DNA of 64,000 nucleotides from an uncultured Candidatus Saccharibacteria bacterium. Lineage in GTDB: Bacteria; Patescibacteriota; Minisyncoccia; Phycocordibacterales; CALRHW01. The notes below the pieces were generated by a model. The model had not been told where the DNA came from. It ran no database searches and saw only the letters and a list, made by a program, of their open reading frames with translations. Shown here piece by piece: positions 29,014 through 62,589 of the stretch. The DNA lies in assembly GCA_964407105.1 (NCBI GenBank), contig CAYOUG010000001.1:164273-228272 (forward strand). The letters are read 5' to 3'. A program made the translations under genes and the position numbers. Position 1 is the stretch's first letter, and every line of letters begins with the position of its first letter.

Positions 29014-29014
29014 T

Positions 29015-31114: not shown

Positions 31115-31120
31115 AAAACA

Positions 31121-31870: not shown

Positions 31871-31874
31871 AATT

Positions 31875-32300: not shown

Positions 32301-32327
32301 AAGGAATATAGGATATAATTTCTAAAT

Positions 32328-32972: not shown

Positions 32973-32973
32973 T

Positions 32974-34788
32974 ATGAGCTTTTTAGAAAATATATTTGGT
33001 GGTAAAAAGAAAGAGGAAACAGTAGGAATGCTTCCTCAGGAAATTTATCAAGCGCAAACACTTGAATTAAAAGATATTATCGCACCAAGCGCCCTAAAAA
33101 TTGCTCCAAAAGAACTAAATTTAGGAGATAAAATTGTACGAACATTTTTTGTTATTTCATACCCGCGTTTTCTTGGTGAAAGTTGGTTTGCGCCAATTAT
33201 TAATCTTGACCGTGTTTTTGATGTCTCTATTTTTATACATCCAGTAGACACAGTGAAAGTTTTGAGACAATTTCAAAAAAAGGTGGCTGAGGTGCAAAGT
33301 CAGATTCATGAACGAGAAGACAAGGGAATGGTGCGTGACCCAATGCTTGATACCGCATATCAAGATCTCGAAAATCTTCGTGATAGTTTACAGCAAGCAC
33401 AAGAAAAACTTTTTGATGTTGGTTTGTACATTTCCATTTATGCAGAAAGTGATGCTGAACTCGATAAAATCGAATCAGAAATACGATCCATTCTTGAATC
33501 AAAGCTTGTTTACGTAAAACCCGCACTTTTCCAACAAGAACAAGGCTATAAAAGCGTGCTTCCTATTGGTACGGACATTCTTGAGGTGCATTCAAAGCTC
33601 AATTCTTCACCGCTTTCAAGTCTTTTTCCTTTTATTTCTTTTGATCTTACGTCTGATAAAGGAATTTTGTATGGTATCAATCGCCACAATTCAAGTCTTG
33701 TACTTTTTGATCGTTTCTCACTTGAAAATTACAACTCTATTACTTTCGCAAAGTCTGGTTCTGGAAAATCTTACGCAACAAAGCTAGAAATTTTGCGTAC
33801 CCTTATGTTTGATACCGAAGTTATAGTTATTGACCCTGAACGAGAATATGAATATATGGCTGAGGCTGTTGGTGGAAGATACTTTAAAATTTCCCTCAAC
33901 TCCGAACACCACATTAATCCATTTGATCTACCCCTTCCAGGAGAGGGTGAGTCTGGAGAAAGCGTGCTTAGAAGTAATATTATCAATCTTGTGGGTCTTT
34001 TTAGGCTTATGCTTGGTGGTATTAGTGCAGAAGAAGACGCAATTATCGACAGAGCAATTACAGAAACATACGCATTAAAAGACATCACGGCCCAGTCTAA
34101 TTTTGCAAATATAGATCCACCACTAATGTCTGATTTCGAGCTTGTGTTGGGGGGAATGGAGGGTGGGGAATCACTAGCGCAACGTCTTACTAAATACACG
34201 AGAGGTACGTGGGCTGGGTTTATCAATCGTCCTACAAATATTGATATTAATAAAAAGTTTATTGTGTTTTCGTTGCGCGACATGGAAGACGAGCTCAAAC
34301 CTATCGCCATGTACATTGTGATGCACTATATTTGGAGTGCAATTCGCAAAGAACTTAAAAAACGCCTCTTGGTAATAGACGAGGCGTGGTGGATGATGAA
34401 ATCCGAAGACACGGCCTCGTTTCTCCTCTCACTCGCTAAACGCGGCCGAAAATATTACCTCGGCCTAGCCACCATCACCCAAGACGTTGACGATTTCCTC
34501 AAGTCTCCATACGGAATGCCGATTATCACCAACTCCTCAATTCAAATTTTACTCAAACAATCTCCAACATCTATAGACAAGCTCCAACAAACATTCAACC
34601 TCACCGACGAAGAAAAATATTTACTCCTTGAAAGCTCGGTAGGAGAGGGAATTTTCTTTGCTGGCCTAAAACACGTCGCAATAAAAATTATTGCATCGTA
34701 TACCGAAGATCAAATCATTACATCCGACCCATCTCAAGTGCTTTCTATTCAACAAGCAAAACGCGATCTGGAACAGTCTCAACAATAA
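32974..34788 (+). CDS. VirB4/TrbE-family T4SS ATPase (ATPase domain)
   Basis: Walker A GSGKSYAT, Walker B LLVIDEAWWMM and the conserved C-terminal region. Confidence 0.8.
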   Translation: MSFLENIFGGKKKEETVGMLPQEIYQAQTLELKDIIAPSALKIAPKELNLGDKIVRTFFVISYPRFLGESWFAPIINLDRVFDVSIFIHPVDTVKVLRQFQKKVAEVQSQIHEREDKGMVRDPMLDTAYQDLENLRDSLQQAQEKLFDVGLYISIYAESDAELDKIESEIRSILESKLVYVKPALFQQEQGYKSVLPIGTDILEVHSKLNSSPLSSLFPFISFDLTSDKGILYGINRHNSSLVLFDRFSLENYNSITFAKSGSGKSYATKLEILRTLMFDTEVIVIDPEREYEYMAEAVGGRYFKISLNSEHHINPFDLPLPGEGESGESVLRSNIINLVGLFRLMLGGISAEEDAIIDRAITETYALKDITAQSNFANIDPPLMSDFELVLGGMEGGESLAQRLTKYTRGTWAGFINRPTNIDINKKFIVFSLRDMEDELKPIAMYIVMHYIWSAIRKELKKRLLVIDEAWWMMKSEDTASFLLSLAKRGRKYYLGLATITQDVDDFLKSPYGMPIITNSSIQILLKQSPTSIDKLQQTFNLTDEEKYLLLESSVGEGIFFAGLKHVAIKIIASYTEDQIITSDPSQVLSIQQAKRDLEQSQQ

Positions 34789-34795
34789 AAACTTT

Positions 34796-35224
34796 ATGGA
34801 ATCAAAACTCACCACCCTAACAGCCGGACTAATGATCACAGTAGCTGTGATTTTTGATATTATTCAAGCACTTCTTGATTTGCTTCACTTTATACCGCTT
34901 GTGGGAAACATATTTGCAATTATTTCCACCTCACTGCTTTCTGTTTTCGCGTGGCTCACATTCTATTTGTGGATGAAAATAAAAGGAATAGATTTTGCAA
35001 GCCCAAAACGCTCGCTTAGTCTTGGTGGTGGTTTTATTTTTGAACTTATTCCAATATTAAATGCTCTTCCGGGATGGACACTTGCTGTAATACTTATTAT
35101 TGGAAGTATGCGTGCTGAAGAATTGATTGCAAAAACCACAGGTATAAACGTAAATATTTCTTCTGGAGTATCGCCGATACCAAATCCAACACAAGCTATT
35201 AAAAACACACCATTGAACAAATAG
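34796..35224 (+). CDS. small polytopic membrane protein (operon member)
   Basis: Three to four TM helices; 8 nt after the VirB4 stop. Confidence 0.45.
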   Translation: MESKLTTLTAGLMITVAVIFDIIQALLDLLHFIPLVGNIFAIISTSLLSVFAWLTFYLWMKIKGIDFASPKRSLSLGGGFIFELIPILNALPGWTLAVILIIGSMRAEELIAKTTGINVNISSGVSPIPNPTQAIKNTPLNK

Positions 35225-35241
35225 TGTATCGTGCTAAAATT

Positions 35242-36264
35242 ATGAAGTACTCTTTGTATATGCTCCATTCTTCTATAAAAATAATATGTGTGACACTTGT
35301 TTTGTTTTTTGCATGCACACTAAGTGCGTCCGCTCAATTGGGCAATCCATCAGCAGAAAGCGTGCAGTTTTTTATTACACCAGAAAATCCTGGATCAAAT
35401 GAACTTGTAAAAATCAGGGTGGAAAGTTTTACATCAGACCTAAATTCAAAAGAAATTACTTGGTCACTAAATGATAAAATCCAAAAAAAAGCGGTGGGCG
35501 ACAAAAATTTTGAGTTTACTACCGGCCCACTTGGAAGTGTCTCTAAAATAACCTTTTCTACAAACACAATAACTAAAAGTGTAACCCTACGCCCAGTAGA
35601 TCTTTTTATAACTTGGCAAACCAACACCTACACACCACCTTTTTATAAAGGAAAAGCAGTGTACACCAACCAAAGCTCAATACAGTTTGTGGCACTTCCT
35701 ATGTTTGTTGGATCAAATGGAAAAACAATAGATCCAAAAAATTTAATATATAAATGGACAAGAGACGACTCCGTACTCAACAACGAATCTGGCTATGGAA
35801 AACAGGTCCTTTCTACTAGCGGTGGAACACTCGCAAAACCAATATTAATTAATCTTGAGGTTACGAGTGCCGACGGACTACTTAAAGCGAAAAGAGAAAT
35901 CGAGGTTGAAGGAAATCTTCCAAGAATTATATTTTACGAAAATCATCCACTCTACGGAATCACGTATCGCAATGCATTACCAGACATCTTTACACTCACA
36001 AGTAAAGAAATAAGTCTTGTCGCCGCACCTTATTTTTTTGATATAAGTGGAAAATTAGACTCAAATCTTTCATATGTATGGAAAATGAATGGGGAAGTCA
36101 TAGAAAATCAAGAAAATCCATCAACACTTACACTTCGAAGACCTGAGGGTTCTGCTGGTGGCAAAGCAAATATATCTCTTATGACTTCTCACCTTGCAAA
36201 AATTATTCAATTTACAAACAAATCTTTAGATATTAATTTTGAAGCTCTAAATATTTCCGATTAA
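35242..36264 (+). CDS. secreted protein with three Ig-like beta-rich repeats
   Basis: Signal peptide; three roughly 100-aa repeats. Confidence 0.5.
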   Translation: MKYSLYMLHSSIKIICVTLVLFFACTLSASAQLGNPSAESVQFFITPENPGSNELVKIRVESFTSDLNSKEITWSLNDKIQKKAVGDKNFEFTTGPLGSVSKITFSTNTITKSVTLRPVDLFITWQTNTYTPPFYKGKAVYTNQSSIQFVALPMFVGSNGKTIDPKNLIYKWTRDDSVLNNESGYGKQVLSTSGGTLAKPILINLEVTSADGLLKAKREIEVEGNLPRIIFYENHPLYGITYRNALPDIFTLTSKEISLVAAPYFFDISGKLDSNLSYVWKMNGEVIENQENPSTLTLRRPEGSAGGKANISLMTSHLAKIIQFTNKSLDINFEALNISD

Positions 36265-36269
36265 AATAT

Positions 36270-37115
36270 ATGATAAAAAACGCAAAAAAATATCTTGGTT
36301 TTATAATAATTTTGATAACTATTTTAAGTATACATGGTGCTTTTTTAACAAAAACGACTTTTGCAGAGCTTGAATCTGGTGGCACCACAGGAGGTTTTAC
36401 AAATTACAAACCCCTTATTCCACTTCCAATTGGACCAAACGGTAGCAACGAAACACCTACAGAACTTTCAAAATACCTACCTGCAATGTTTCAATTTTTT
36501 ATAGGTATTGCTGGAGTACTTGCTGTGGTAATGATCGTAATTGGTGGAATACAATATATGTCTACTGATGCGGTCTATGGTAAAAGTGCTGGAAAAGAAA
36601 AAATCGCTCAAGCACTTGGTGGACTTTTGCTCGCTATTGTTGCTTGGCTTATTCTTTATTCCATCAACCCAAATCTTTTAAATACAGTTCTTGGTGGGCC
36701 AAATACACAAATGGCCAGTTCAACACCAACAAACCCAATACCACACACAGCAAGAGTAACGTATCACGTACAAAACACATATGGACCACCAACAACCGAG
36801 TGTAAAAGTACATATCCATCACCACAAGCATGTGCACAATCACTTACACAACTAGAAGCATCATATCCAACGCCACCATATGCCAACGTATCTGTTGGTT
36901 GTGATGTTGAGTGCAATCCAACACCTCCACCCCCACCATATTCACTTATGGTTACCTATCATGTACAGGGCATACCAGGACCACCAAAAGTAGCCTGTTA
37001 CCCTTATACTGGTCCCGTAGAATGTCAAACAGCATCTGAAAACTTTGATCAATCAGACCAACCAACATGGATTATTCACAACGAAATTTGTACTCAAGAG
37101 TGTACAGAACAATAA
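36270..37115 (+). CDS. VirB2/TrbC-like pilin candidate with a C-terminal tandem Cys-containing repeat
   Basis: Long signal peptide then two hydrophobic helices separated by a short loop (LPAMFQFFIGIAGVLAVVMIVIGG / KIAQALGGLLLAIVAWLILY); C-terminal repeats RVTYHVQNTYGPPTTEC and MVTYHVQGIPGPPKVAC. Confidence 0.5.
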   Translation: MIKNAKKYLGFIIILITILSIHGAFLTKTTFAELESGGTTGGFTNYKPLIPLPIGPNGSNETPTELSKYLPAMFQFFIGIAGVLAVVMIVIGGIQYMSTDAVYGKSAGKEKIAQALGGLLLAIVAWLILYSINPNLLNTVLGGPNTQMASSTPTNPIPHTARVTYHVQNTYGPPTTECKSTYPSPQACAQSLTQLEASYPTPPYANVSVGCDVECNPTPPPPPYSLMVTYHVQGIPGPPKVACYPYTGPVECQTASENFDQSDQPTWIIHNEICTQECTEQ

Positions 37116-37118
37116 ACC

Positions 37119-38357
37119 ATGCTTAAAAAAATTATTATCGTCATAGCTATTATTATCTTACTCGCTTTAGGCGCATTTACTTATCTTTATTTCACATCAC
37201 CAGAAAGCCTTAACTCAATCACAAGCAATGTGGGAATAAACGTGTCAGACTTTTTTCCTTTTGGACAAGAGCCCACAACACCAACAAACACCACAAACAA
37301 TTCTTCGGGAGACACCCCTCCAAACACAACGCCGGCCCAATTACGACAAATATATTCTTCTCCTGTATCTGGTGGGCAGTTTTTCAATATAAACAACAAC
37401 ACCGCTGTGCGTTTTGTGGAACAGTCAACAGGCAACGTATATGAAGCGAATACAGAAAATACGGCCATAGAACGCATCACCAACACCACAATTCCAAAAG
37501 TAACAGAAGCTACTTTTGTAACAAAAGATAGTGTGCTTTTGCGATTTTTACGAGACGATAGTGATCTTATTGAAACTGTATACGGCACAATAAGCACAAC
37601 AACATCTACAAGCACGGTGCAAAGTGAGTTTGCAGACCTTCAAACAACATTTCTCTTTCCAAACATCAAAGACCTTGTTGTTTCTCCTAAAAAAGATAAG
37701 GTTTTTTACATAAATCAATTTTCGATTGGCGCTCTAGGTACCATTGCAAGTCCTAATGGTTCAAATAAGACTGTGGCGTTTGAATCTCCAATTCGTGAGT
37801 GGAACACGCAGTGGCCGACCACCACCACACTAGCACTCACCACAGCGCCAAGTGCACAGGTATCAGGATATTTATATTTCGTAAACACCACCACAGGCAC
37901 GCAACAAAAAATATTAGCAAATATTCCAGGACTAACCACTCTCACAAACACAAACACTTCGAGCGTGCTCTACACAAAAAATAATCTCAAAGGAAGTTTT
38001 TCCCTAAATTTACTTAACACAAAAACAGGAACATCAACCCTTCTTTCTTTTGGTCAAACATTACCAGAAAAATGTGTGTGGAGTAAAAAAAATGTAAACG
38101 TAATGTATTGTGCGGTGCCAAAAGTTATACCAAAAGGGGAATATCCTGATATTTGGTATATGGGTCTTGTTTCTTTTAGTGACAAACTCTGGCGTATCAA
38201 CACAGAAACCAACGAAACAGATATGCTTGTCGATCTTGAAAGTGTGTCTGGACGAACACTCGATGCTATAAAACTTTCTTTGGATACAAATGAAAACTAT
38301 ATTCTGTTTACAAACAAAGCTGACTCAACCTTGTGGAGTTTCGCACTAAATAAATAA
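37119..38357 (+). CDS. membrane-anchored Thr/Asn-rich extracytoplasmic protein (last gene of the operon)
   Basis: N-terminal TM helix, low-complexity TPTNTTNNSSGDTPPNTTP linker, beta-rich C-terminal domain. Confidence 0.5.
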   Translation: MLKKIIIVIAIIILLALGAFTYLYFTSPESLNSITSNVGINVSDFFPFGQEPTTPTNTTNNSSGDTPPNTTPAQLRQIYSSPVSGGQFFNINNNTAVRFVEQSTGNVYEANTENTAIERITNTTIPKVTEATFVTKDSVLLRFLRDDSDLIETVYGTISTTTSTSTVQSEFADLQTTFLFPNIKDLVVSPKKDKVFYINQFSIGALGTIASPNGSNKTVAFESPIREWNTQWPTTTTLALTTAPSAQVSGYLYFVNTTTGTQQKILANIPGLTTLTNTNTSSVLYTKNNLKGSFSLNLLNTKTGTSTLLSFGQTLPEKCVWSKKNVNVMYCAVPKVIPKGEYPDIWYMGLVSFSDKLWRINTETNETDMLVDLESVSGRTLDAIKLSLDTNENYILFTNKADSTLWSFALNK

Positions 38358-38401: not shown

Positions 38402-39181
38402 TTATTTCTTAATGTTTCTTTTGAGTACCAATTCTTGTCCGATAGTAAATAAATTACTCGTAATCCAATAAAGTGCGATTGCTGCGGATATTCCATAAGA
38501 GATGAATCCGGCGATAATCGGGAATACATAGATCATTTGTACGCGCATACTACGTGCAAGATCGTGTTTAAATGAATCTGTATTGGTTTTGCCCTGTGTC
38601 TCAGTTTTTTGCTGTGTTTTTGGAGCCATTAATTTTGCTTGAAAAAACGTAGAAATAGCCACAAGCACAGCAAGCACAATACTTTTTGAAGAAATATCTA
38701 TAAGTCCCAAAAACATCATATTAATATAATTGGGAATACCCACAAAACCATATAAAAGTTCTTTGTTTACTGTTGGTAAACCTGAATGCCAAAATATTCT
38801 ATAAAGGGCAAAAATTATTGGTAATTGAATAAATATAAGCAAAATACTCATAAAAGGCCGCACACCTCTTTCTTTGTAAAGTTGCATCGTCTTTCGAGCT
38901 TGTTCTTGTTTATCATCCTTAAACTGTTCACGAATTATTTGAAGCTCTGGTTCTATTTGCTTCATCTGAATCTGTGTTGTGACGGCTTTTTTGGAAAGAG
39001 GGAATAGAATAAGTTTGATTATGATTGTAAACAAAATTACCGCAATTCCAGCATCCACCCAAGGAATTAGATTAATCAACAAAATAAGTCCGTTATAAAG
39101 AGGCTGGTAAACAATTGTGTGGTATATATTTGATATCATCAGGTTATTGTAACTTACGGTGGAAGCATTTTCAAACCACAC
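38402..39181 (-). CDS. yidC: membrane protein insertase YidC/Oxa1 family (short form)
   Basis: Five TM helices and the conserved ..KQIEPELQIIREQFKDDKQE..MQLYKERGVRPF.. region. Confidence 0.85.
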   Translation of the reverse strand: MWFENASTVSYNNLMISNIYHTIVYQPLYNGLILLINLIPWVDAGIAVILFTIIIKLILFPLSKKAVTTQIQMKQIEPELQIIREQFKDDKQEQARKTMQLYKERGVRPFMSILLIFIQLPIIFALYRIFWHSGLPTVNKELLYGFVGIPNYINMMFLGLIDISSKSIVLAVLVAISTFFQAKLMAPKTQQKTETQGKTNTDSFKHDLARSMRVQMIYVFPIIAGFISYGISAAIALYWITSNLFTIGQELVLKRNIKK

Positions 39182-39510
39182 TACATAAGACGAGCTTTGT
39201 GAAAAAGTTCCTCTATTTCAGACTGTAAAACAGCGAAGGTTATTTTATTAGCTCCTTGTTTTGCAGAAATAACAGTATGTGATGTTTTTTTTATTTGTGG
39301 CAATAGCACACGTATTACCGCATACACACGTCTACGCACTCTGTTTCTGTCTACAGCGCTCTGTGCAACCTTTTTTGAAACAAGAGCGGCATAACCCTCT
39401 TTGGAGGCCGAGATTGTTCGTAATAAGAAGTGGGGGGAATTTTGCAATAAACCCAAAGAAAGAATGCGTCCAAAAGAATCTCTAGGGATCCTTTTTTGTT
39501 TAGGTAGCAT
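39181..39510 (-). CDS. rnpA: ribonuclease P protein component
   Basis: 109 aa, basic; RNR motif region AVDRNRVRRRVYAV; located between rpmH and yidC. Confidence 0.8.
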   Translation of the reverse strand: MLPKQKRIPRDSFGRILSLGLLQNSPHFLLRTISASKEGYAALVSKKVAQSAVDRNRVRRRVYAVIRVLLPQIKKTSHTVISAKQGANKITFAVLQSEIEELFHKARLM

Positions 39511-39538
39511 ATATAAAAGGAGATTATGCTCTCAGGCC

Positions 39539-39673
39539 TTAAACCGTGAGTCTAGCTCGACCTTTTGCTCGTCTTCGATTGACGGTTTTTTTACCACCAG
39601 CCGTTCGTTTTCGCTTAAGAAAACCGTGTGATTTAGCGCGTTTTCGTTTTTTAGGATTATATGTAAAAGACAT
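39539..39673 (-). CDS. rpmH: 50S ribosomal protein L34
   Basis: Hand translation MSFTYNPKKRKRAKSHGFLKRKRTAGGKKTVNRRRAKGRARLTV (44 aa); not in the ORF table because it is shorter than 60 aa. Confidence 0.9.
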   Translation of the reverse strand: MSFTYNPKKRKRAKSHGFLKRKRTAGGKKTVNRRRAKGRARLTV

Positions 39674-39817
39674 ATGACAGGAGTATATAGGAGAAATTAT
39701 ATTTATTCAAGTAAAAGTCTATTTTTTTGTTATACACAAGATATGCACAGTGTATCAACATATTTGTACCTTAAATACAAGTACGAAGTGTTTACCTATC
39801 ATATATAATAGTTCGAT

Positions 39818-41173
39818 ATGGATAGTAAAAAAATCTGGGAGAGTGTACTTGTGGATATAGAAATTAATGTTTCTAAGGCAAATTTCAATACTTGGTTCAA
39901 AGATACTTATATATATAAATTTGAAGATGGGGTGGTGTATTTGAGTGTGCCAAATAATTTTGTAAAGGAGTGGCTTCTTAAAAAATTTCACTCATATATA
40001 TTAAAGGCTTTGCGCGGACTATCAGAAAACGTTCGGTCGCTTGACTATATAGTAAGTAGGGGAGATATAAAGAAAAAAGAACCTGATCACATAAAAGGAT
40101 TAAACACTTTAGCTGAAAGCACAAACGAACTACCTTTAAATGAATTTTATATCAACAAAGACGATAATTTGAATCCAAAATACACCTTTGATTCTTTTAT
40201 TATCGGCCCATTCAACGAACTTGCTCACGCAGCAGCGCAAGCGATTATTAAAAAACCAGGAATTGTTTATAATCCACTTTTTGTTTACGGCAACACCGGA
40301 CACGGAAAAACCCACCTTATACAAGCAATAGGTAACCACATGAAACATACTTATCCTGAACGTAAGATACATTACCTTACATCAGAAAAATTTGCTGTTG
40401 ATTATATAAATTCAGTTCAAAATCAAAAAGTAAACAATTTCAAAGAAAAATATAGAAAATATGACGTTCTTATAATGGACGATATTCAATTTCTTTCAAA
40501 TAAAGAGAGGACTCAGGAAGAATTATTCCATTTGTTTAATTTTCTCTACGACAACAATAAGCAAATTATTTTTTCTTCAGACAAACATCCAAACTATATT
40601 CCACAACTCGAGGAACGTCTTAAATCGCGCTTTGGTGCTGGTATGATAGTAGACATTCCTCCTCCAGACGAAGAATCACGCGCAGCTATTTTGACTGCAA
40701 AACTAAAACAACACAACCTAGAACTACCAAAAGAGGTGCTTGCTTATCTTGCACAAACACTTTCTACAAACATTAGAGAGCTTGAGGGTGCTTTAAATGG
40801 GGTAATGATGCAAATGCAACTAAAACAAAAAGAAGTTACTCTTAATGATGTAAAAAACCTTCTTAAAAACAACACAAAACCAAAGAAAAATCTTTCACCA
40901 AAAGAAATAATAAAAATAATCGCTGATTTTTATAATATCAATGAAGAAAGTATTTATGAAAAAACAAGAAAAAAGGAAATAATAAAACCACGCCAAATTA
41001 CTATGTATATTTTACGAGAAGATTTTAATATCTCTTACCCATCAATAGGGGAGAAAATGGGAGGGCGAGACCACACTACAGTTATTCATTCGTGTGAAAA
41101 AATAAAAAACGACCTTAAATTAAATACTGACTTGGCGCAGGAGATAAATCAGATTAGATCAATGTTTGTTTGA
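39818..41173 (+). CDS. dnaA: chromosomal replication initiator protein DnaA
   Basis: AAA+ Walker A GNTGHGKTHL, Walker B LIMDDIQF, sensor motifs and C-terminal DNA-binding domain. Confidence 0.95.
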   Translation: MDSKKIWESVLVDIEINVSKANFNTWFKDTYIYKFEDGVVYLSVPNNFVKEWLLKKFHSYILKALRGLSENVRSLDYIVSRGDIKKKEPDHIKGLNTLAESTNELPLNEFYINKDDNLNPKYTFDSFIIGPFNELAHAAAQAIIKKPGIVYNPLFVYGNTGHGKTHLIQAIGNHMKHTYPERKIHYLTSEKFAVDYINSVQNQKVNNFKEKYRKYDVLIMDDIQFLSNKERTQEELFHLFNFLYDNNKQIIFSSDKHPNYIPQLEERLKSRFGAGMIVDIPPPDEESRAAILTAKLKQHNLELPKEVLAYLAQTLSTNIRELEGALNGVMMQMQLKQKEVTLNDVKNLLKNNTKPKKNLSPKEIIKIIADFYNINEESIYEKTRKKEIIKPRQITMYILREDFNISYPSIGEKMGGRDHTTVIHSCEKIKNDLKLNTDLAQEINQIRSMFV

Positions 41174-41402
41174 TGTGTAAAACCTTGTGTATATAGTGTG
41201 GATAGGGATGAATAAGTGTGGATAAAAAAACAAATTATTTTTCAAAAACTACTTTATGAACAACCTATTAAAAACAATCCACAGTTCAATAATTGAAAAT
41301 AAAAAAAATACGGCTAATTATCGAGGTTTAAAAAGTTATCCAGATATCCACATCCCGTATAATAGTAATAGTATTTATATATAATATATACATACAACAT
41401 AT
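41174..41402. promoter_or_regulatory. candidate oriC: DnaA-box cluster plus an AT-rich unwinding element between dnaA and dnaN
   Basis: TGTGGATAG (41197), TGTGGATAA (41217), CAATCCACA (41275), TTATCCAGA (41336), ATATCCACA (41345), then a pure A/T tract at 41366-41400. Confidence 0.7.
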
Positions 41403-42503
41403 ATGAAAATAGAATGTCTTATCGAAAAATTAAATAAACATATAATGCAGGCTGAGCGTATTGCAGGTAAAAATCATTCACTACCAATTATTAATTGTAT
41501 TTTATTGGAAGCAACAAAAAACTCACTTCGTATTAGATCTACAAATCTTGATTTAGGTATAGAAATTACTGTGCCAGTAAAAGTATTAGAAGAGGGAAGT
41601 GTTGCTGTACCCGCTGGTATATTAGGTATGTTTTTATCGAGTTTACATACAGATAAAGCAGTAACACTAGAAACAAAAGATAATACTTTATTTGTTTTTT
41701 CTCAAAAAAATTCAACACAAATAAAAACCCAGTCAGTAGAAGATTTTCCAACATTACCAATGGTTTCAAATGAAAAACTATTTAAAATTAATCCACAAGA
41801 TTTTATAAATGGTTTAAAGTCGGTATGGTACAGCTCTTCAGTTTCAAGTATGAAATCTGAACTCTCAAGTGTTTATATTTACAGTGATGATGATAGTCTT
41901 GTTTTTGTTGCCACTGACTCATTTAGGCTTGCTGAGAAAAAAATAAAAAACCAGAAAATAAAAGAATTTAATCATCTTCTTATTCCTTTTAAAAACATTC
42001 CAGAAATAATTCGAGTACTTGAAAATACTTCAAATGAAGTGGAAATTTGTGTAGAAAAAAACCAAATATCTTTTACATACGAATACATATACCTTACTTC
42101 ACGTGTTATTGATGGTGTTTTTCCTGATTACAAACAAATTATCCCTAAAAATTTTACTACCGAAGTGGTAATGTTAAAACAAGATTTTGTAAATTCTCTT
42201 AAGACAGCAAATATTTTCTCAAACAAACTTAATCAGATAAACATAAAAGCATTACCGTCTAAAAAGATATTTGAACTTCAAACAAAAAATTCAGATATTG
42301 GAGAAAACACAAATAGTATTGATGCTGTTTTTATAGGTGAAGATATAGATATTAATTTTAATTATAAATATGTTGTTGATTGTCTCCAATCCATTGATTC
42401 AGAAAGTATTTCTTTAAATTTTACAGGAATGAATAAACCAATGGTGATATTTGGTGTTTCAGATAAATCATTTCTTTATCTTGTGATGCCTATGAATAGG
42501 TAG
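41403..42503 (+). CDS. dnaN: DNA polymerase III beta sliding clamp
   Basis: 366 aa with three-domain clamp architecture; conserved N-terminus MKIECLIEKL.. Confidence 0.9.
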   Translation: MKIECLIEKLNKHIMQAERIAGKNHSLPIINCILLEATKNSLRIRSTNLDLGIEITVPVKVLEEGSVAVPAGILGMFLSSLHTDKAVTLETKDNTLFVFSQKNSTQIKTQSVEDFPTLPMVSNEKLFKINPQDFINGLKSVWYSSSVSSMKSELSSVYIYSDDDSLVFVATDSFRLAEKKIKNQKIKEFNHLLIPFKNIPEIIRVLENTSNEVEICVEKNQISFTYEYIYLTSRVIDGVFPDYKQIIPKNFTTEVVMLKQDFVNSLKTANIFSNKLNQINIKALPSKKIFELQTKNSDIGENTNSIDAVFIGEDIDINFNYKYVVDCLQSIDSESISLNFTGMNKPMVIFGVSDKSFLYLVMPMNR

Positions 42504-42508
42504 ATTTT

Positions 42509-42763
42509 ATGGAAAATATCACTTCTTTTTTACAAAAATTCAAAAAAATACTTTCTTCTCAAGGTGCTCACGCGTATGTATTTATTGAAATTGTAAAAGA
42601 CGAGCTTGGTATTAAGTTACAAAAAAAAGATGTGAGTGTTCGAGGTAATGTGATTTATGTTCGTGTTTCTCCAGCATCAAAAAATACAATATTTTTAAAA
42701 AAGAAGAAAATACTCGATCTACTCACAGAACAGGCTGGTCGCCACGTCACCGATATTCGCTAA
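42509..42763 (+). CDS. small conserved protein after dnaN, possibly DciA/DUF721-like
   Basis: 84 aa; context only (genes of this size after dnaN are often DUF721). Confidence 0.3.
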   Translation: MENITSFLQKFKKILSSQGAHAYVFIEIVKDELGIKLQKKDVSVRGNVIYVRVSPASKNTIFLKKKKILDLLTEQAGRHVTDIR

Positions 42764-42765
42764 GG

Positions 42766-45255
42766 CTACTTGTTTATTTCAAATACGACAAAATCTTCAT
42801 CTTTATTAAACACTTCGTCGTACACCACTATTTTGAGCTCATTGTTTCCGTTTTTAATAAAATCAAGATCGTTGGGAACAAAAGAAATAGTAAAAGGAGA
42901 TTTTGTGTTTACACCAACCACGTTTCCGTTTATATAATATTCTATTTTTTGAATAGGGAATTCTCCGGAATATTCTATTGATGTGTTTATTTTTTTATCA
43001 CTATCATATTTTTTGTTTTTTTGAGGAGTTTCAATTGAAATGTTCGGCATATTTTCTGGAGTGTGCACATCGTCATATTTTGTTGGTTTTGATACGTCTG
43101 ATTCATTGATATTGTTTTCTTCAACCCATTTACGAACACCATACTCCCAGTTTTTAAATTGAGGATCGTCGTCCGGGTTGCTTGGTATTGGTCCGCGAGG
43201 ATTATTTTTGTCTACCCAATAAAGAATAGAGTGAACAGTACCAGTAACCACCTCTTTTTGTGTTTCTGGTGGAGTGTATTCTGTTGCGAGTTTTCCAGAT
43301 ACGGTATCAATCGAATATGTTTCGCCACCCTGCCATTTGTCACGAAGAATTGGTTTTTGATCACTTAAATCCTCAACAAAAGGCGCTTCAAATTTTTCAT
43401 TCGGATAATTCTCAAGAGCTTTACTCATTATTTTGTTCCAATATGGAGCAATAATGTAACCAGCCACCTTTTTGTCCATCGGAGTGTTATTGTTGTTACC
43501 AACCCACCCGCCAATAACCAAACTTGGTGTGTAACCAACAATCCAAGCATCTTTGTAGTCATTGGTAGTACCTGTTTTTACAGCCACATCACGATTTGGA
43601 ATATACAGAGATGAGTGTGCTCCAAAAATTGGTGCACGCGCTTCATCGTCTGAAAGAATATTAGAAATTTGTAACGCTACATTTTTGTCTAATACATTTG
43701 TTGGGGTTTGTTCAGTTTTTGTGATAACACCAGTGTCTTTGTCTGTAATTTCAAGAATTGTTTTATATGGATAACGCACCCCATTGTTTGCAAAAACACC
43801 ATAAGCGCTTGTCATATCTACAAGCGACACCTCACCACCTCCAAGCACAAGAGTGAGCCCGTATTGATCTATGTTTCCAAGAGTGCTGATACCCATATCT
43901 TTTGCAAAACGAAGAGTATCGCGCATACCAGCAAGATAAAGTGTTTTTATGGCTGGAATGTTTATCGATTGGGCAAGAGCGTTGCGCATTGTCATTGGTC
44001 CGCGAAAATTACCAGTATAATTTATTGGCGCATAACATCCGTCACCGTTTTTCATATCATCTGGTTTGCAGGTTGTTGAAAATTGAGTTTTAACATCAAA
44101 AAGCACAGTGCTTGGAGTGAATCCTTTTGTAAATGCTGTTGCGTATGCAAATGGTTTGAAGGCAGATCCAGGTTGTCTTTTAGCTAGTGCAATATTAAAA
44201 TTACCGTCTATTGTGGTGTCAAAGTAGTCTCTAGAGCCTACCATTGCTAAGACATCTCCATTTTTAGGGTCGATTGCTACAGTCGCAATATTTTCAGCTT
44301 GGTGTGTTTTTGCGTTTGCAAGCGCATACTCTTTTGCCTCTTTTTCTATCATTTCTTGAAGTTTGTAGTCGAGTGTGGTGATTACTTTAAGTCCACCTTG
44401 TTCTAAAACCTCTTTCCCGTATTGTTTTTCAAGTAAATCTTTTACAAACATCACAAAATGCGGTGCTTTTATTCCCGACTCCTCTTGAGTTTTAAAAACA
44501 ACAACTTCGTTTTTTGCTTGATTAAATTCTGTTTCGTTTATATAACCCTGATTTTTCATTTCTTCAAGGACAACATTTTTTCTTTCATCTAAGGCGGTGC
44601 GATTTTTGTATGGAGAATAGTATGATGGAGCTTTTGGAAGGGAAGCGAGGTATGCCGCTTCTGCTATGGTTATATCTTTTGATTTTTTGCCAAAAAACGC
44701 ACTACTTGCTTCTTCGACACCATAAATACTACCGCCGTAAGGAATTTCATTTAGATACATTGCCAGTATTTCGTCTTTTGTGAGAATTTTTTCAAGTTTA
44801 ATAGCAAGCACCCACTCTTTTATTTTTCGTGAAATACTTTTTTCACCAGTGAGTAAGGAATTTTTTACTACTTGTTGTGTAATGGTTGATCCACCCTGAC
44901 TAAATTGAAGTGTTTTTAGGTTTGCAAATATTGCACGAATAAAAGAAGAAGGTTTTACACCATGATGTGTATAAAATTCTTTATCTTCAATTGCAATTGA
45001 AGCGTGTTTTATGTGGTCTGAAATTTGGTCAAGAGGCACCACCGTGCGACGAATATTTTGATATACATCATAAAGAAGTACTTCGCCTGTGCGATCATAA
45101 ATTTTTGTTGATTGAGAAACTTTACGCTCTTGAAAAGAGTCTAGGGTGGGTAGTTTGAATGTTGAAATCCAAAGTAAAAAAATGGAGATGAAAATGATAA
45201 ATGCGCCAGATCCTAAAAATACAATATTTTTAATTAGACGAGTTTTCTTTTTCAT
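42766..45255 (-). CDS. class A penicillin-binding protein (transglycosylase/transpeptidase) with a C-terminal extension
   Basis: N-terminal TM helix; GT51 motifs (EDKEFYTHHG, GGSTITQQ) and transpeptidase SxxK/SxN/KTG (KTGTT) motifs. Confidence 0.85.
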   Translation of the reverse strand: MKKKTRLIKNIVFLGSGAFIIFISIFLLWISTFKLPTLDSFQERKVSQSTKIYDRTGEVLLYDVYQNIRRTVVPLDQISDHIKHASIAIEDKEFYTHHGVKPSSFIRAIFANLKTLQFSQGGSTITQQVVKNSLLTGEKSISRKIKEWVLAIKLEKILTKDEILAMYLNEIPYGGSIYGVEEASSAFFGKKSKDITIAEAAYLASLPKAPSYYSPYKNRTALDERKNVVLEEMKNQGYINETEFNQAKNEVVVFKTQEESGIKAPHFVMFVKDLLEKQYGKEVLEQGGLKVITTLDYKLQEMIEKEAKEYALANAKTHQAENIATVAIDPKNGDVLAMVGSRDYFDTTIDGNFNIALAKRQPGSAFKPFAYATAFTKGFTPSTVLFDVKTQFSTTCKPDDMKNGDGCYAPINYTGNFRGPMTMRNALAQSINIPAIKTLYLAGMRDTLRFAKDMGISTLGNIDQYGLTLVLGGGEVSLVDMTSAYGVFANNGVRYPYKTILEITDKDTGVITKTEQTPTNVLDKNVALQISNILSDDEARAPIFGAHSSLYIPNRDVAVKTGTTNDYKDAWIVGYTPSLVIGGWVGNNNNTPMDKKVAGYIIAPYWNKIMSKALENYPNEKFEAPFVEDLSDQKPILRDKWQGGETYSIDTVSGKLATEYTPPETQKEVVTGTVHSILYWVDKNNPRGPIPSNPDDDPQFKNWEYGVRKWVEENNINESDVSKPTKYDDVHTPENMPNISIETPQKNKKYDSDKKINTSIEYSGEFPIQKIEYYINGNVVGVNTKSPFTISFVPNDLDFIKNGNNELKIVVYDEVFNKDEDFVVFEINK

Positions 45256-48953: not shown

Positions 48954-49058
48954 GCTAGACAGCTGTTATGCATTACGCTAATGATGTATTGACAAATACA
49001 TCAAATTATGCTATACTCTACGTTAGAAATACCTTGAAATTAAATGTGTGTTGAGATG

Positions 49059-49110
49059 TTTGCCACAACGGAAAATGGCTTGAAAATAAGCTATTTTCCG
49101 TTGTGGCAAA
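49059..49110. promoter_or_regulatory. 52-bp palindrome (perfect 18-bp arms) upstream of the GC-rich ORF; candidate operator
   Basis: TTTGCCACAACGGAAAAT-ggcttgaaaataagct-ATTTTCCGTTGTGGCAAA, about 50 nt upstream of the ATG at 49158. Confidence 0.4.
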
Positions 49111-49157
49111 CCAATGTGGTTAAGCCAACAAACAGCACTTCAGAAAGGAAAAGTCAC

Positions 49158-49718
49158 ATGGCACGTTCAAAGTCTGAAAAACTCATGAACCCGGCGACAG
49201 AATTGGAAATCGGAGAGGTGGAAGCAGTGGACACTTTTGTTTTGAAAGGAGACTCTTTCATTACGATCAGAGAGGGAAAACAGACCTCGACGATGGTGGC
49301 TTCCATCGACCCCTTTTTTATGAGTCGATTTTTTACGAAGACCCCAAATGCGGATCATGCCATGGTGGTTGTCAAACCACCAACATTGAAACGAAGGTTT
49401 CAGTGCACCGGCTTGAAGCGATACGACCATGGAAGGTACGTGGTTGCGAGCGAGGTGATTCGCGAGTTGGGTGGGGAAGCAAAGGTCGCAATAACTCCAG
49501 CGGAGTTTTGTCACTTTCTGGCGTCCCAATCCGATGATTTTAGGTTCAAGAATCGCGTTTGTTTTATGAGGGACACAAGTGGTGTTCTTCAGGAGGTTTA
49601 TGTGAGTTACTACCAACATGGTTCTCTAGCTGGTCTTCATATCAGCGCCAACCTCATCAATTGCGGTCGATGGTCTGAGGGAACACGTTTGGTTTTCCCT
49701 CGTGCCAAAGGAAAGTGA
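49158..49718 (+). CDS. hypothetical protein in a GC-rich islet
   Basis: GAAAGGAAAAG ribosome-binding site; GC-rich codon usage unlike the flanking ruvB and pilB; no recognisable motif. Confidence 0.5.
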   Translation: MARSKSEKLMNPATELEIGEVEAVDTFVLKGDSFITIREGKQTSTMVASIDPFFMSRFFTKTPNADHAMVVVKPPTLKRRFQCTGLKRYDHGRYVVASEVIRELGGEAKVAITPAEFCHFLASQSDDFRFKNRVCFMRDTSGVLQEVYVSYYQHGSLAGLHISANLINCGRWSEGTRLVFPRAKGK

Positions 49719-49790: not shown

Positions 49791-50204
49791 ATTTAATTAT
49801 TTCACTTGACATTTTAGACAATGTATGATACATTTATGGGGAACTTGAAATATGGCGGTGTCAAACGATCAAAGACAGACAGTCCTTGATTTTTTTCTCG
49901 CCTTGGGTAATATATGAGACTCCCACTTTATGGGGTACTCCTTTGTCAATCCAAGATATAAATCTCTAAGCAACGAGGCCTTACGGCCTAGTAAGATTTC
50001 TTCAGAGGACATTCTGGTTACCACCTTGTGTGGTTTGCTGGGGTTATCCTATGTGAAATGTTTAACTTTTGGTACGAATATTAAAAGTGTTGCTTAGAGA
50101 TTTATGTCTTTGATTGTTTTAAAAACAATTCATCTCTACTAGTCTAATTATTCATAGGAAAAGAGTTTCTGCAATCTTGTAAAACAAAAAATCTGTTTCT
50201 TAAT

Positions 50205-52002: not shown

Positions 52003-52031
52003 TTGACTTTTATTCTTCATTGTGCTATAAT
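52003..52031 (+). promoter_or_regulatory. sigma70-like promoter for the GC-rich lipoprotein gene
   Basis: TTGACT, 17-nt spacer, TATAAT, about 65 nt upstream of the ATG; AAAGGAGGG ribosome-binding site. Confidence 0.55.
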
Positions 52032-52097
52032 AGAAAAGGATGAAGTGAGGAATGTTTCCTGCTTCAAATACAGAAATTCCGCCCAAAGGAGGGCATC

Positions 52098-52430
52098 ATG
52101 ACAACTCGATCGAACATTATCAAACTCGCAGTTCTCACCTTCGTCGCGATGCTCCTCGGTGGAGCGTTTGGCGGATGTGGTCCTCAACGGACCACGTCGA
52201 TTGAGACTGTGGTTAACCCCGACGGTTCAACCACGGTCCACAAGTACAAGACGGTTGTCGAGGGAGGGAGCGGAATGTTCGCCCCCGTCCACATCAACCG
52301 ATACTCGTCCCCCGGATATGTTCGGGGGCGATACGTGGAATGGGGTACGGAGAATCGCGGGGTTGCTTATCACAGCTTCGGGCTCAACGAGCCCCACAAG
52401 CACGTGTATGGCAACAACTGCAACAAGTGA
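52098..52430 (+). CDS. small putative lipoprotein in a GC-rich islet
   Basis: Signal peptide ending ..LLGGAFGGC (lipobox-like); GC-rich codons; own promoter and terminator. Confidence 0.55.
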   Translation: MTTRSNIIKLAVLTFVAMLLGGAFGGCGPQRTTSIETVVNPDGSTTVHKYKTVVEGGSGMFAPVHINRYSSPGYVRGRYVEWGTENRGVAYHSFGLNEPHKHVYGNNCNK

Positions 52431-52627
52431 ATGATGAAGTGTATACCACAACATCATCACAACGCGCGCTTAACCTTTCGAGGTTTGGCGCGTTTTTTCT
52501 TGTGTGTATACGTATTTTTTTTAATAATTTAAATATTGACTGTCGATATAATTTATGTTAGTATTGTGGAAGATTAAACAGCAGAAATTTTTTCAGCTGT
52601 TTCCGCAAAGCCAACAGAAAGGAAGTT

Positions 52628-53020
52628 ATGAAGCTCTTTGGAATTGTTGCTGCGGCGATGGTTGCAGCTGTGTCATGTGGTGCGTTGGCTGAGACGATTA
52701 CGCGTACCGAGTACGCTGGTGGGCCGGTCATGACGTACACCAACGGTGTGCTCACGCATGTCAACGGTATGAGTGTGCCACCACCCGCACCTCCGCCAGC
52801 CCCCGTTGTGCAGACGCAGGTTGTGGTGGTGCAACAGTATGCCCCGCCTCCGCAGGTGGTGTGTGTCGAACGGCCACGCGTGGTCTTTCGGTACTACCAC
52901 CAGCCGACGTACTGCGCACCGGTGGTGCATGTGCGTTCGTGTGAATCACGGGTGAATGTTGGCCTTTCAGTCGGCATTCGTTTCGGTGGTGGACACGATC
53001 ACTTTCACCCTTGCCGCTAG
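52628..53020 (+). CDS. small secreted Pro-rich, Cys/His-containing protein in a GC-rich islet
   Basis: Signal peptide (..CGALA/ETI), PPPAPPPAP linker, four Cys and GGGHDHFHPC at the C-terminus; own promoter-like TTGACT..TAGTAT and AAAGGAAG ribosome-binding site. Confidence 0.55.
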   Translation: MKLFGIVAAAMVAAVSCGALAETITRTEYAGGPVMTYTNGVLTHVNGMSVPPPAPPPAPVVQTQVVVVQQYAPPPQVVCVERPRVVFRYYHQPTYCAPVVHVRSCESRVNVGLSVGIRFGGGHDHFHPCR

Positions 53021-53085
53021 ACGTTTGCATCTCTCTTGGGGTGCGCACGCGTCAGATCTTTATGGTCTGACGCGTTTTCTTTTAC

Positions 53086-53158
53086 AAAATTTGTTGTAAC
53101 CCCCCACCCAACACTCTCTCACTAAAGCGCTTCGCTAACCCGTTCGAGAGTGTTGGGT
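53086..53158. repeat. exceptionally long perfect hairpin (23-bp GC-rich stem, 27-nt loop) upstream of tsaE
   Basis: GTAACCCCCCACCCAACACTCTC ... GAGAGTGTTGGGTGGGGGGTTAC; loop contains TCGCTAACCCGTTCGAG, similar to the loop at 6251-6268. Confidence 0.7.
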
Positions 53159-53172
53159 GGGGGGTTACACCC

Positions 53173-53703
53173 TTGATGAAAGATTGTTTTGTGTGGGTTT
53201 TAGGCGACCAGCTGTGCTACTATAGTCGCATGATTACTACCACAAGTCTGACAGAAACATACGTGGTTGCGGCGGATTTTGTACAAAAAATTATCAAAAT
53301 TCCCCAACAAATTTCTGATAATAATTCTTTATCTAATGCTATTGTTGTTGGTTTTTATGGAGATTTAGGTGCAGGAAAAACAGCTTTCATACAAGGTATA
53401 GCAAAAGCGTTGGGTGTAGAATCTCAGGTGGTGAGTCCTACGTTTGTGTTAGAAAAAATATATAAACTTAATGCGAGTATGCAGGAAAGATTTACACACC
53501 TTGTGCACATTGATGCGTATCGTATGGATGATCCAAAAGAACTTGTGCATATTGGCTGGCACGATCTTCTTAAAGATTCGCGAAACCTTATTTGTATTGA
53601 ATGGCCAGAACGTGTTGCATCAGAAATGCCACAAAATCATATTCACATCACTTGTGGTTTCGTTGACGACACAACTCATACTTACGATATTCAATTATCA
53701 TGA
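53173..53703 (+). CDS. tsaE: tRNA threonylcarbamoyladenosine biosynthesis protein TsaE
   Basis: P-loop GDLGAGKTAF and TsaE-like length; alternative start 53230. Confidence 0.8.
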   Translation: MMKDCFVWVLGDQLCYYSRMITTTSLTETYVVAADFVQKIIKIPQQISDNNSLSNAIVVGFYGDLGAGKTAFIQGIAKALGVESQVVSPTFVLEKIYKLNASMQERFTHLVHIDAYRMDDPKELVHIGWHDLLKDSRNLICIEWPERVASEMPQNHIHITCGFVDDTTHTYDIQLS

Positions 53704-61180: not shown

Positions 61181-61233
61181 GACAAAAAACCAAAACATGT
61201 GTTGAGAAGAGAAAAATAAAAACAGTGGTGTGT

Positions 61234-61306
61234 CTCGCGATACGCGTCAATCGCTGCTGCGATTGCTGCTCCGCTCGGCGCCGTCGCGCCTGCGCGAGTT
61301 CGCTTA
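61234..61306 (+). repeat. family B GC-rich element, copy B3
   Basis: Core ..ATCGCTGCTGCGATTGCTGCTCCGCTCGGCGCCGTCGCGCCTGCGCGAG.. within a 20-bp perfect inverted repeat (61214-61233 / 61307-61326) between convergent genes. Confidence 0.75.
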
Positions 61307-61320
61307 ACACACCACTGTTT

Positions 61321-62589
61321 TTATTTTTCTAACATCTTTCGCAACTCCTCTTCTGCTACTGCGCGATCACTCCACGGTTCTTTTGTTCCACCTGCGCGCA
61401 TGATATATGGATCAGTTCCTTTTCCAGTAATAAGTATAGCGTCACCGGCGCGCGCTTTGGAAATAGCTTTTGCAATAGCTTGTCTGCGATCCATAATGAT
61501 TTCACAGGGTTTTTCAACAATTGCCTTTTTCATTTCCTCCACAATGCTTAAAGGATCATCATCGTAAGGATCTTCGTCGGTAAGAATAATTTCATCACAA
61601 TATGAGTCGGCGATTTGTGCCATTTCTGGTCTTTTCCAAGTATCACGTCCACCACCGGTATTACCAAGTACACATATTTTTCGTTGAGTAGGAAATGCTT
61701 GGTAAAGCTTTTCAAGAGAGTCTGCGGTGTGTGCATAGTCGACAATAACATCAAAATTTTGTCCCATCTCGACACGTTCAACACGCCCTTTGATTGGCGC
61801 AATATGTGAAAGTGCACGGGCGATTGTTTCAACAGGAATTCCCATTGCGTGTGTTACTGTTGCTGCAGCAAGAGCATTGTATATATTAAAAAGTCCCGTG
61901 AGCGGCATGAAAATTTTTGTACCATGAAATGTGAATGTAACAGAATGTTGATTTTCTTTGTTATCAAGCGTATACGGTTTTGCGTCATTAATTGAAAATG
62001 GAACAGTGTGTTTTATTTTTGGTAAAGAAAGATAAAATGTGGATTCGCTATCGTCAAGATTTGCTACCATCCACGTTTCTTTATGCGAACGAGTAAGTGC
62101 TAAAGCGATAGACCTTTTTGCGTCACGGTATTTTTCAAACGAACCATGTGACTCAATATGTTCTGGCGAAAGATTATTGAATATAAGTGCATTAAGTTCT
62201 ATGCCGTGATGACGATATTGTCTCGCACCCTCAGAGGTTATTTCTATTACTGCATGAGTACACTGAGCATTTACTGCTTCCCGTAAAAAATTTTGCATAA
62301 AAAAGCGTCCCGGCATCGACATTTTATACATATTCGGACGACTTTTTTCGGCAATTTTAAAACGAATAGTATTTGAAAGCGCAGTTTTTTTGCCCGCTTC
62401 TTCTAGTATTGCGTTGATAAGTTCTGTCGTACTAGATTTTCCTTTTGTGCCCGTAACACCTATTACTATAAGTTTTTTTGAAGGAAAGCCGTTGAGTATT
62501 GTGCCTGTGTATGCAAGAAGTATGTGATATGCAGGTTGAAAAAAATTAAACATTGGTTTAGGAATAATTTTTTTAAGAAATGAAAACAT
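61321..62589 (-). CDS. Mur ligase family protein (MurE/MurF-like central and C-terminal domains, short N-terminus)
   Basis: GVTGTKGKSST P-loop; C-terminal DYAHTADSLEKL, GGGRD..KRP and TDEDP motifs. Confidence 0.7.
   Translation of the reverse strand: MFSFLKKIIPKPMFNFFQPAYHILLAYTGTILNGFPSKKLIVIGVTGTKGKSSTTELINAILEEAGKKTALSNTIRFKIAEKSRPNMYKMSMPGRFFMQNFLREAVNAQCTHAVIEITSEGARQYRHHGIELNALIFNNLSPEHIESHGSFEKYRDAKRSIALALTRSHKETWMVANLDDSESTFYLSLPKIKHTVPFSINDAKPYTLDNKENQHSVTFTFHGTKIFMPLTGLFNIYNALAAATVTHAMGIPVETIARALSHIAPIKGRVERVEMGQNFDVIVDYAHTADSLEKLYQAFPTQRKICVLGNTGGGRDTWKRPEMAQIADSYCDEIILTDEDPYDDDPLSIVEEMKKAIVEKPCEIIMDRRQAIAKAISKARAGDAILITGKGTDPYIMRAGGTKEPWSDRAVAEEELRKMLEK

Follow-up and report, generated by a model that had tools for sequence, protein, structure and literature searches.

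Structured cores at the tips of long perfect hairpins: a small repeat family in CPR genomes and its copy upstream of tsaE

In a 64-kb window (the whole stretch of DNA that was analysed, 64,000 nucleotides) from an uncultured Candidatus Saccharibacteria bacterium, the perfect hairpin upstream of tsaE, here named C1, carries at its tip a core that we also observed in another hairpin of the window and in other genomes. These comparisons support a real, small repeat family not described before, family C, found in a clade of ultra-small Paceibacterota (CPR bacteria), whose conserved core caps long perfect hairpins, for the most part gene-end terminators. Such a third element family had been supposed in the original prediction, and we have now seen five copies of it in three genomes, with the architecture of families A and B of the window: in all three, the arms are long and perfect and the core that they hold at the tip is conserved. 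We consider it rather probable that family C is selfish DNA of the REP or MITE kind, whose cores colonise the tips of hairpins and whose arms owe their perfect pairing and their extension to template switching.

Structure of C1 and the core of family C

C1 was initially placed at 53086-53158, which is 10 nt too low; the hairpin spans 53095-53169 (Table 1). The 23-bp perfect GC-rich stem noticed at that time corresponds to 53096-53118 and 53146-53168 and lies inside a 24-bp inverted repeat, 100% complementary, with 58% G+C in its arms; the arms are 27 nt apart, as had been stated for the loop. The hairpin had been expected to be extremely stable. Indeed, its RNA fold reaches -53.2 kcal/mol on the + strand and -57.0 kcal/mol on the - strand (z = -10.9 and -9.9), an energy matched by none of 200 shuffled sequences, and its DNA fold reaches -31.6 kcal/mol (z = -10.4). 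No copy of the C1 arms was found elsewhere in the 64-kb window. They are C/G-rich, unlike the arms of all other family C copies, and their resemblance to strings in two relatives, L045 and L046 (GGGTGGGGGG/CCCCACCC), is suggestive and not above chance.

Table 1. Position of the elements and of the neighbouring features, in the window and in related sequences
Feature	Sequence	Position	Strand	Description or evidence
Family A element	window	63-180	+	repeat/inverted-repeat search
Family B element	window	182-312	+	
Family A element	window	6103-6208	+	three-way-junction core in long arms, immediately upstream of C2
Copy C2	window	6237-6279	+	arms AAAAAACGGCCT / AGGCTGTTTTTT (one G-T pair); motif search, fold, covariance model
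Family B element	window	16738-16851	-	
Family A element	window	19467-19586	+	
Family A element	window	25361-25496	-	
Upstream ORFan	window	52628-53020	+	GC-rich, 130 aa, lipoprotein-like signal peptide; terminator and then hairpin follow
Intrinsic terminator of upstream ORF	window	53047-53083	+	12-bp stem, 5-nt loop, TTTCTTTT; consensus scan, joint fold
C1 left arm	window	53095-53118	+	TGTAACCCCCCACCCAACACTCTC; inverted-repeat search, fold
C1 apical core	window	53119-53145	+	TCACTAAAGCGCTTCGCTAACCCGTTC, 27 nt; fold, alignment, covariance model
C1 right arm	window	53146-53169	+	GAGAGTGTTGGGTGGGGGGTTACA, no T-run 3' of arm; inverted-repeat search, terminator scan
Putative extended -10 promoter	window	53213-53232	+	TGTGCTACTAT, tsaE ATG 6 nt on; by-eye conservation
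tsaE	window	53230-53703	+	TIGR00150, 91.7 bits
Family B element	window	61210-61330	-	between convergent amidase and Mur-ligase genes
Family B element	L047	17765-17867		
Family B elements	L052-L060			
rplL terminator	L064 (window genome)	10286-10330		AAAACAAAACAAAAACACC, then reverse-complement start of A core (GGGTACGGA); contig ends there
rplL terminator	L030, L071-74	3872-3968 (L030)		CATAAAAACAAAAACAG, then C core
rplL terminator (family B locus)	L076	3408-3528		outer flank as in L030/L071-74 plus CATAA...TTATG, then B core
rplL terminator	L065-70	8324-8434 (L065)		...GCAAAACACC / GGTGTTTTGC..., then B-like core
rplL terminator	L075, L079			A variant, then orphan right arm GGTGTTTTTGTTTTGTTT

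The loop of C1 had been related to that of a hairpin at 6236-6280. We observed that the motif TCGCTAACCCGYTCGA occurs without mismatch at only two places of the window, 6251-6266 and 53132-53147, each time on the + strand and in a hairpin loop; when up to three mismatches were allowed, three matches were found for 0.37 expected. As had been suggested, the search was extended genome-wide. A scan of 596 Gb of sequence, with one genome per species, gave 40 matches to the 18-mer CYTCGCTAACCCGYTCGA. Thirty-eight of them fall in unrelated, mostly GC-rich genomes and without a hairpin, which is about the number expected by chance. The two others belong to L009 and L030, two low-GC CPR MAGs in which the motif lies within a 27-nt loop, TCGCTAAAGCGCTTCGCTAACCCGCTC, closed by CTCTC/GAGAG.

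These two genomes hold three more copies. The L009 copy is located 3' of rplB and one of the L030 copies (L030b) 3' of rplL; both have long perfect arms, different in sequence from those of C1. The second L030 copy (L030a) has no arms (fold z = -0.02), which implies that the core is separable from the arms. L030, a MAG labelled 'Saccharibacteria', is a fairly close relative, since its RplL is 88% identical to that of the window genome (P0130); the PolA homologues of the window genome are found in Paceibacterota/Parcubacteria. In L009, the S10-operon genes rplB and rpsS, usually direct neighbours, are separated by an insertion (337-1925) made up of the C hairpin, a PemK/MazF-type toxin gene and a 264-aa ORF.

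The family C core, of about 37 nt, is composed of CTCTC, two tandem 13-nt units of the form TCGCTAAnnCGCT and GAGAG. In C1, the CTCTC that forms the base of the core is made by the last 5 nt of the left arm, and all the elements by which we recognise the family (CTCTC, TCGCTAAAGCGCT, TCGCTAACCCGCT and C/GAGAG, at a hairpin tip) are present. Its loop is identical at 25 of 27 positions to the loops of L009 and L030b. In comparison to the L009/L030 consensus, the C1 core has only two substitutions, G>A at loop position 3 and C>T at loop position 25. The two bases are partners in the predicted fold, so that the change is compensatory; we estimate that such an arrangement would arise by chance in about 1% of cases.

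A covariance model was built from four full copies, including C1 and leaving out C2. It scores 72-86 bits for the L009 and L030 copies and 83.5 bits for C1, itself part of the seed, and it finds C2, aligned with a clean gap of 13 nt, at 32.7 bits (E = 2.8e-6); plain terminators of the clade also match this model, via their arms alone. The gap corresponds to a tandem unit missing at the tip of C2, where one 13-nt unit, TCGCTAACCCGCT (6251-6263), is present. The proposed relation between the two loops of the window therefore holds: they carry the same core, less one unit in C2. C2 is terminator-like and lies 3' of the HU gene and of a family A element. Like L009 and L030b, it has A-tract/T-tract arms, it occupies the expected terminator position and it is the sole terminator-like structure after its gene. 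All four orientable C copies are co-directional with the upstream gene.

Only two copies are present in the window, and one-mismatch 16-mer pairs are expected somewhere in 64 kb, so that a chance palindrome with a coincidental likeness of loops had to be considered; only marginal significance had been feared from the start. The fold z-scores of about -10, the identical loops within hairpins of other genomes and the covariance E-value of C2 dispel this concern and leave chance with a negligible probability. The independent copies in other genomes show that the likeness of the C1 and C2 loops exceeds chance.

Outside these genomes, the 21-mer CTAAAGCGCTTCGCTAACCCG had no match in JGI metagenomes, and the patterns of C, A and B had none in viral contigs, so that there is no phage link. 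In an Rfam gathering scan of the whole window only six tRNAs passed, around C1 only generic miRNA-precursor matches were obtained (at most 30 bits for thresholds of 66-100), and E-value scans at C1, at A1/B1 and at 49.7-50.2 kb returned no family. A full-text literature search, raw sequences included, found no description of A, B or C elements. Two proposals, on the source and on a common target of the elements, were rejected. C does not appear to be a deletion derivative of B, the best alignment (21/28; all B variants, both strands) being equalled by 79 of 1000 shuffles, and a CTCGAG (XhoI) site as common target is not supported by the 13 sites observed for 8 expected. TCTCGAGCG...GCGAGAG is common to the reverse complement of C and to the P2 base of family A, though only with p about 0.02-0.03 and for blocks that are not independent.

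The tsaE locus in the window and in its relatives

The NCBIfam model TIGR00150 identifies the downstream gene as tsaE, in agreement with the original prediction. The pattern TGnTAnTAT-N6/7-ATG is, by eye, retained in four relatives, and tsaE would start leaderless from an extended -10 promoter. C1 is upstream of this promoter and would thus be outside the tsaE transcript.

It had been suggested to compare the locus with related genomes. We observed that C1 is absent from L063, L045, L046 and L047, four relatives with a PolA identity of 72-84%, of which L063 and L045 cover the locus only from the upstream ORF onward; in all four, the upstream terminator or the end of the ORF abuts the tsaE promoter. 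As judged from these alignments, C1 is therefore a lineage-specific insertion in the lineage of the window.

C1 had also been read as a terminator. Its GC-rich stem is of the kind found in intrinsic terminators (about 5-12 bp or more). However, its loop of 27 nt exceeds the 3-8 nt of such terminators, and no T-run is present directly 3' of the stem on either strand (CCCTTGATGAAAG on the + strand, ACAACAAATTTTG on the - strand). Moreover, a consensus terminator scan flags only 53047-53075 with TTTCTTTT, a complete terminator 20 nt upstream of C1, which ends 12 nt before C1 when its T-tract is included. C1 is not a terminator because it has no U-tract and because the true terminator is located 20 nt upstream.

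The position of C1 between this terminator and the tsaE promoter, and its extreme stability as RNA and as DNA, would suit a transcriptional insulator or roadblock that stops or pauses a polymerase reading through, or a cruciform that shields the promoter. We regard such a role as improbable. The stem is not followed by a U-tract, four relatives, in which the terminator or ORF end abuts the promoter, do without C1, and the core is common to copies at ordinary terminator sites, so that the placement of C1 need not be adaptive. C1 would probably have no dedicated function for tsaE, and be at most a pause or roadblock for read-through transcription.

C1 is located at the right edge of a GC-rich stretch. 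Two ORFan genes of this stretch (52003-53020), with 56-59% GC, encode lipoprotein-type signal peptides, and an AT-rich sigma-70-like promoter precedes each of them. For the ORFan next to C1, a search of 5.8 billion proteins gave no homologue besides itself. The promoter and leader of the first ORF of this 'islet' align with the same position in L046 and L047, and the order T2SSE (- strand), small secreted ORFs, tsaE and polA is kept in L045, L046 and L047. The stretch is thus an orthologous, fast-evolving small-lipoprotein locus rather than an acquired island; it is orthologous in the relatives, with proteins diverged beyond recognition, and C1 is the sole extra piece at the tsaE locus.

An integration scar at the border of the islet had been proposed as well. 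The position at the right edge stands and the foreign islet does not. An att or attC-like site at the right border of acquired DNA is thereby largely refuted, and we judge it very unlikely. In L009 the C copy does flank a PemK-toxin cassette between rplB and rpsS, and a G-rich 15-mer at the other end of this cassette (1788-1802, GTGTTGGGGGGGGTG) resembles the C1 right arm, with p about 0.02, a likeness that we take as suggestive and not as above chance. However, the stem of C1 is perfect, without the extrahelical bases of integron attC sites, and its arm ends are unlike the R''/R' consensus: for the attC boxes (RYYYAAC...GTTRRRY), TTGTAAC/GTTACAC fit only at AAC/GTT. The sole tyrosine recombinase of the window, 40 kb away, scores as XerD/XerC/XerA and reaches 122 bits with the integron integrase model for a cutoff of 265 bits. 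In addition, the copies 3' of rplL and HU are not at cassette borders.

Other parts of the window deserve mention. Between the ORF 49044-49718 (after ruvB) and the T2SSE gene, a non-coding stretch of about 170 nt (49945-50118), closed by 28-nt arms, is 88% identical to L046 7015-7180 and L047 6458-6626, where PolA identity is only 72-75%; it has no Rfam match at E<1 and is a candidate conserved structured ncRNA. At 39181-43000, rnpA and yidC on the - strand are followed by dnaA and dnaN on the + strand; the cumulative GC-skew minimum (about 38-41 kb) and the lowest GC content of the window (29%) are found here, and the replication origin is probably near 39.5 kb. The region 27040-38357 resembles a type IV secretion or conjugation-like block, with PrgI, TraG/VirB4-like ATPase and T4SS-pilin domains among unannotated ORFs.

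Families A and B and the rplL terminator

The core of family A, of about 70 nt (GTAGGGGGTCTCGAGCGCGACGGCGCGAGAGCTTCAGGATTTTTTAAGCTTCAAAAAATCCGTACCC), folds as a three-way junction at the tip of 18-39-nt perfect arms, 3' of gene ends; that of family B contains CGACGGCGCCGAGCGGAGCAG and a covarying P3 hairpin. In both families the cores are near-identical among copies and fold as three-way junctions, with P1 formed by the arms, P2 by a GC hairpin and P3 by the covarying hairpin. The perfect arms, 18-39 nt long, differ in each copy; the left one is rich in A and the right one in T. All A and B copies of the window are located just 3' of gene ends or between convergent genes. A variant of A with a covarying P2 was found in L075 and L079, and family B, with P3 covariation, in other Paceibacterota genomes as well as in seven JGI metagenome contigs of low GC. 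Since A and B share GCGCGACGGCGC and their architecture, they probably form one superfamily. Neither core had a match in Rfam, and no hammerhead or twister motif was seen by eye or with Rfam.

These modules are frequent: about 9 of the roughly 19 strong gene-end hairpins in the 64 kb carry A, B or C at their tip. Logan short-read contigs from several samples end inside A or B at gene ends (L042-L044, L048, L049, L064, L077, L078, L080 and L081), as expected for dispersed repeats, and in a comparison of the regions downstream of HU all three contigs stop inside an A element. In L060, the left flank of L058 and the right flank of L057 are joined across the B core, which is likely the result of a chimeric metagenome assembly, or of recombination, across the B repeat.

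The junction between the amidase and Mur-ligase genes carries an orthologous B element in the window and in L047, which is absent, arms included, from L045 and L046. In L047 (GCA_046350795.1), the two convergent genes both end in the arm-encoded AAACAAAAGTAG (KQK*). From these identical ends it follows that one gene end was overwritten by an inverted copy of the other, and that a palindrome can spread outward; on this reading of the alignment, the hairpin arms rewrote a gene C-terminus. In a hand-compiled list, the arms of element-bearing hairpins are longer than those of plain terminators (mean 27.6 versus 16.9 nt, Mann-Whitney p = 1.5e-4).

The orthologous rplL terminator, always followed by the ATGGATAT gene, holds different cores in related genomes (Table 1), and in none of the six lineages examined is it empty. 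Among 70 loci, the 18-mer arm AAACAAAACAAAAACACC is found exactly only in the C arms of L009, 3' of rplB, and in L064. Since the same arms hold different cores and the same core is held by different arms, the pattern is not that of one structure evolving vertically; the A, B and C cores are probably mobile, interchangeable occupants of hairpin tips. With respect to the upstream gene, A and B may have either orientation (L064 versus L075/L079; window B2 versus L076), which favours for their cores an origin at the DNA level over a strand-specific RNA role.

The constant occupation of the rplL terminator could also mean that the cores are useful and not merely tolerated. According to the main rival explanation, the cores would serve as RNA modules in terminators or 3' UTRs, and C1 would be a copy that has strayed or is decaying. 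In this case, the structured tip would shield highly expressed mRNAs (rplL, rplB, HU) from 3' exonucleases, or would bind a protein, and A, B and C would be exchangeable. We find this possible, yet clearly less likely than a selfish origin. Beside the occupation in six of six lineages, it fits the covariation of P2 and P3 between A and B variants and the fact that the genes followed by L009, L030b and C2 have no other terminator-like structure; the co-directional C copies and the compensatory changes of C1 hint at selection on transcript or single-stranded DNA structure.

Several observations are difficult to reconcile with such a module. At unidirectional gene ends, A and B are seen either way round, and the evidence of U-G versus C-A on the folded strand conflicts, by eye, among P3 copies. 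C1 follows a complete terminator and precedes a leaderless promoter, so that it would be transcribed only by read-through. No Rfam family matches, and identical cores at non-homologous loci of different genomes would still need copy-and-paste. A selfish origin and a useful RNA are not exclusive and may be compatible, as for REP elements.

Proposed origin and relation to known elements

In the scheme that we favour, A, B and C cores, sometimes with their arms, would be copied into the tips of hairpins, mainly of gene-end terminators, where the insertions would be tolerated because the arms still pair. Intra-strand template switching (palindrome correction) would hold the arms perfect and possibly lengthen them, and whole hairpins would occasionally be copied to new sites, as for the rplB copy of L009. 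C1 would be a recent copy in the short interval that separates the upstream terminator from the leaderless tsaE promoter, its odd C/G-rich arms having been brought from another donor or built from the local flank.

The comparisons show that C1 belongs to family C, how the elements are built, that copies are absent in relatives, that one orthologous terminator holds different cores and that arms overwrite gene ends. We infer the enzymatic step and the exact insertion chemistry of this scheme, as well as the mobility of the cores, their targeting to hairpin tips, the growth of the arms and the lack of function. Among the about 50 ORFs of the window, a Pfam search gave no IS200/IS605/RAYT-type enzyme and no DDE transposase, and only an Xer-type recombinase. 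No direct repeat indicative of a target-site duplication was found in the flanks of the five C copies, and no empty hairpin with the same arms as an occupied copy was recovered; insertion into a pre-existing loop is thus presumed. The empty amidase/Mur-ligase site lacks the arms too, which counts against this scheme.

Several known systems share features with these elements. REP, BIME and REPIN sequences, mobilised by RAYT in Proteobacteria, are also short, dispersed extragenic palindromes found 3' of genes and forming stable hairpins; they are thought to be selfish, sometimes stabilise mRNA or aid termination, and several families may be present per genome. However, their conserved part is the stem with a 5' GTAG-type head, whereas in family C the tip is conserved and the stem varies; GTAG is absent from the C core and present in the A core. 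In addition, no RAYT was seen in the 64 kb inspected, the host belongs to CPR and the copy number of family C appears low. MITEs (Correia/NEMIS, RUP, BOX and Rickettsia palindromic elements) are likewise small intergenic elements, structured and non-autonomous, that may provide a terminator or a promoter. Unlike family C, which has only a 5-bp CTCTC/GAGAG closure, no duplication and long copy-specific arms, they have conserved terminal inverted repeats of at least 10 nt and target-site duplications.

The IS3-family elements IS1397 and ISKpn1 insert into the loop of REP palindromic units, a precedent for mobile DNA that targets the apical loop of extragenic palindromes. They are autonomous 1.4-kb IS with a transposase and target duplications, whereas the cores described here are non-coding, 37-70 nt long and without visible duplication. 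The AT-rich mitochondrial genomes of yeast contain mobile GC clusters, GC-rich palindromic elements that form hairpins in intergenic regions and are polymorphic for presence or absence. These too are GC-rich hairpin repeats scattered in an AT-rich genome, with an unrelated host and unrelated sequences, and we know of no terminator-tip context for them.

Rho-independent terminators resemble L009, L030b and C2 by their A-tract, GC-closed stem and T-tract at the terminator position; they differ from C1, which lacks a U-tract, has a structured 27-nt loop and follows a complete terminator. Integron attC sites are also hairpin-forming repeats beside small cassette-like ORFs, but no integron integrase was found, and the conserved loops between variable segments of TIGR arrays, like CRISPR, belong to tandem arrays with Tas or Cas genes, whereas the C copies are single and dispersed, with no such array or gene.

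More speculatively, and in our opinion with a rather low probability, A, B and C may be mobile modules of a type not recognised before, with the apical loop of hairpins, in extruded terminators or in single-stranded DNA, as their specific homing target; at a given terminator one family would compete with another and take its place, with arms rebuilt and extended by template switching, even over last codons. Such homing may have a target defined by structure and not by sequence, and may be driven by an enzyme or by RNA or single-stranded DNA intermediates in genome-reduced CPR hosts.

At the tsaE locus itself, C1 is most likely a neutral passenger and not a regulator of tsaE. More generally, CPR/Patescibacteria genomes are regarded as streamlined and repeat-poor. 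At gene ends, the A and B elements interrupt short-read assemblies and so fragment CPR MAGs, and the A, B and C elements might be used as lineage markers. Should they be functional, they would constitute 3'-end RNA structures of a class so far unannotated, in a phylum whose RNA biology has hardly been studied by experiment. If they are mobile, these modules would define a structural insertion target, the tip of hairpins, and a mechanism that reshapes terminators and gene C-termini.
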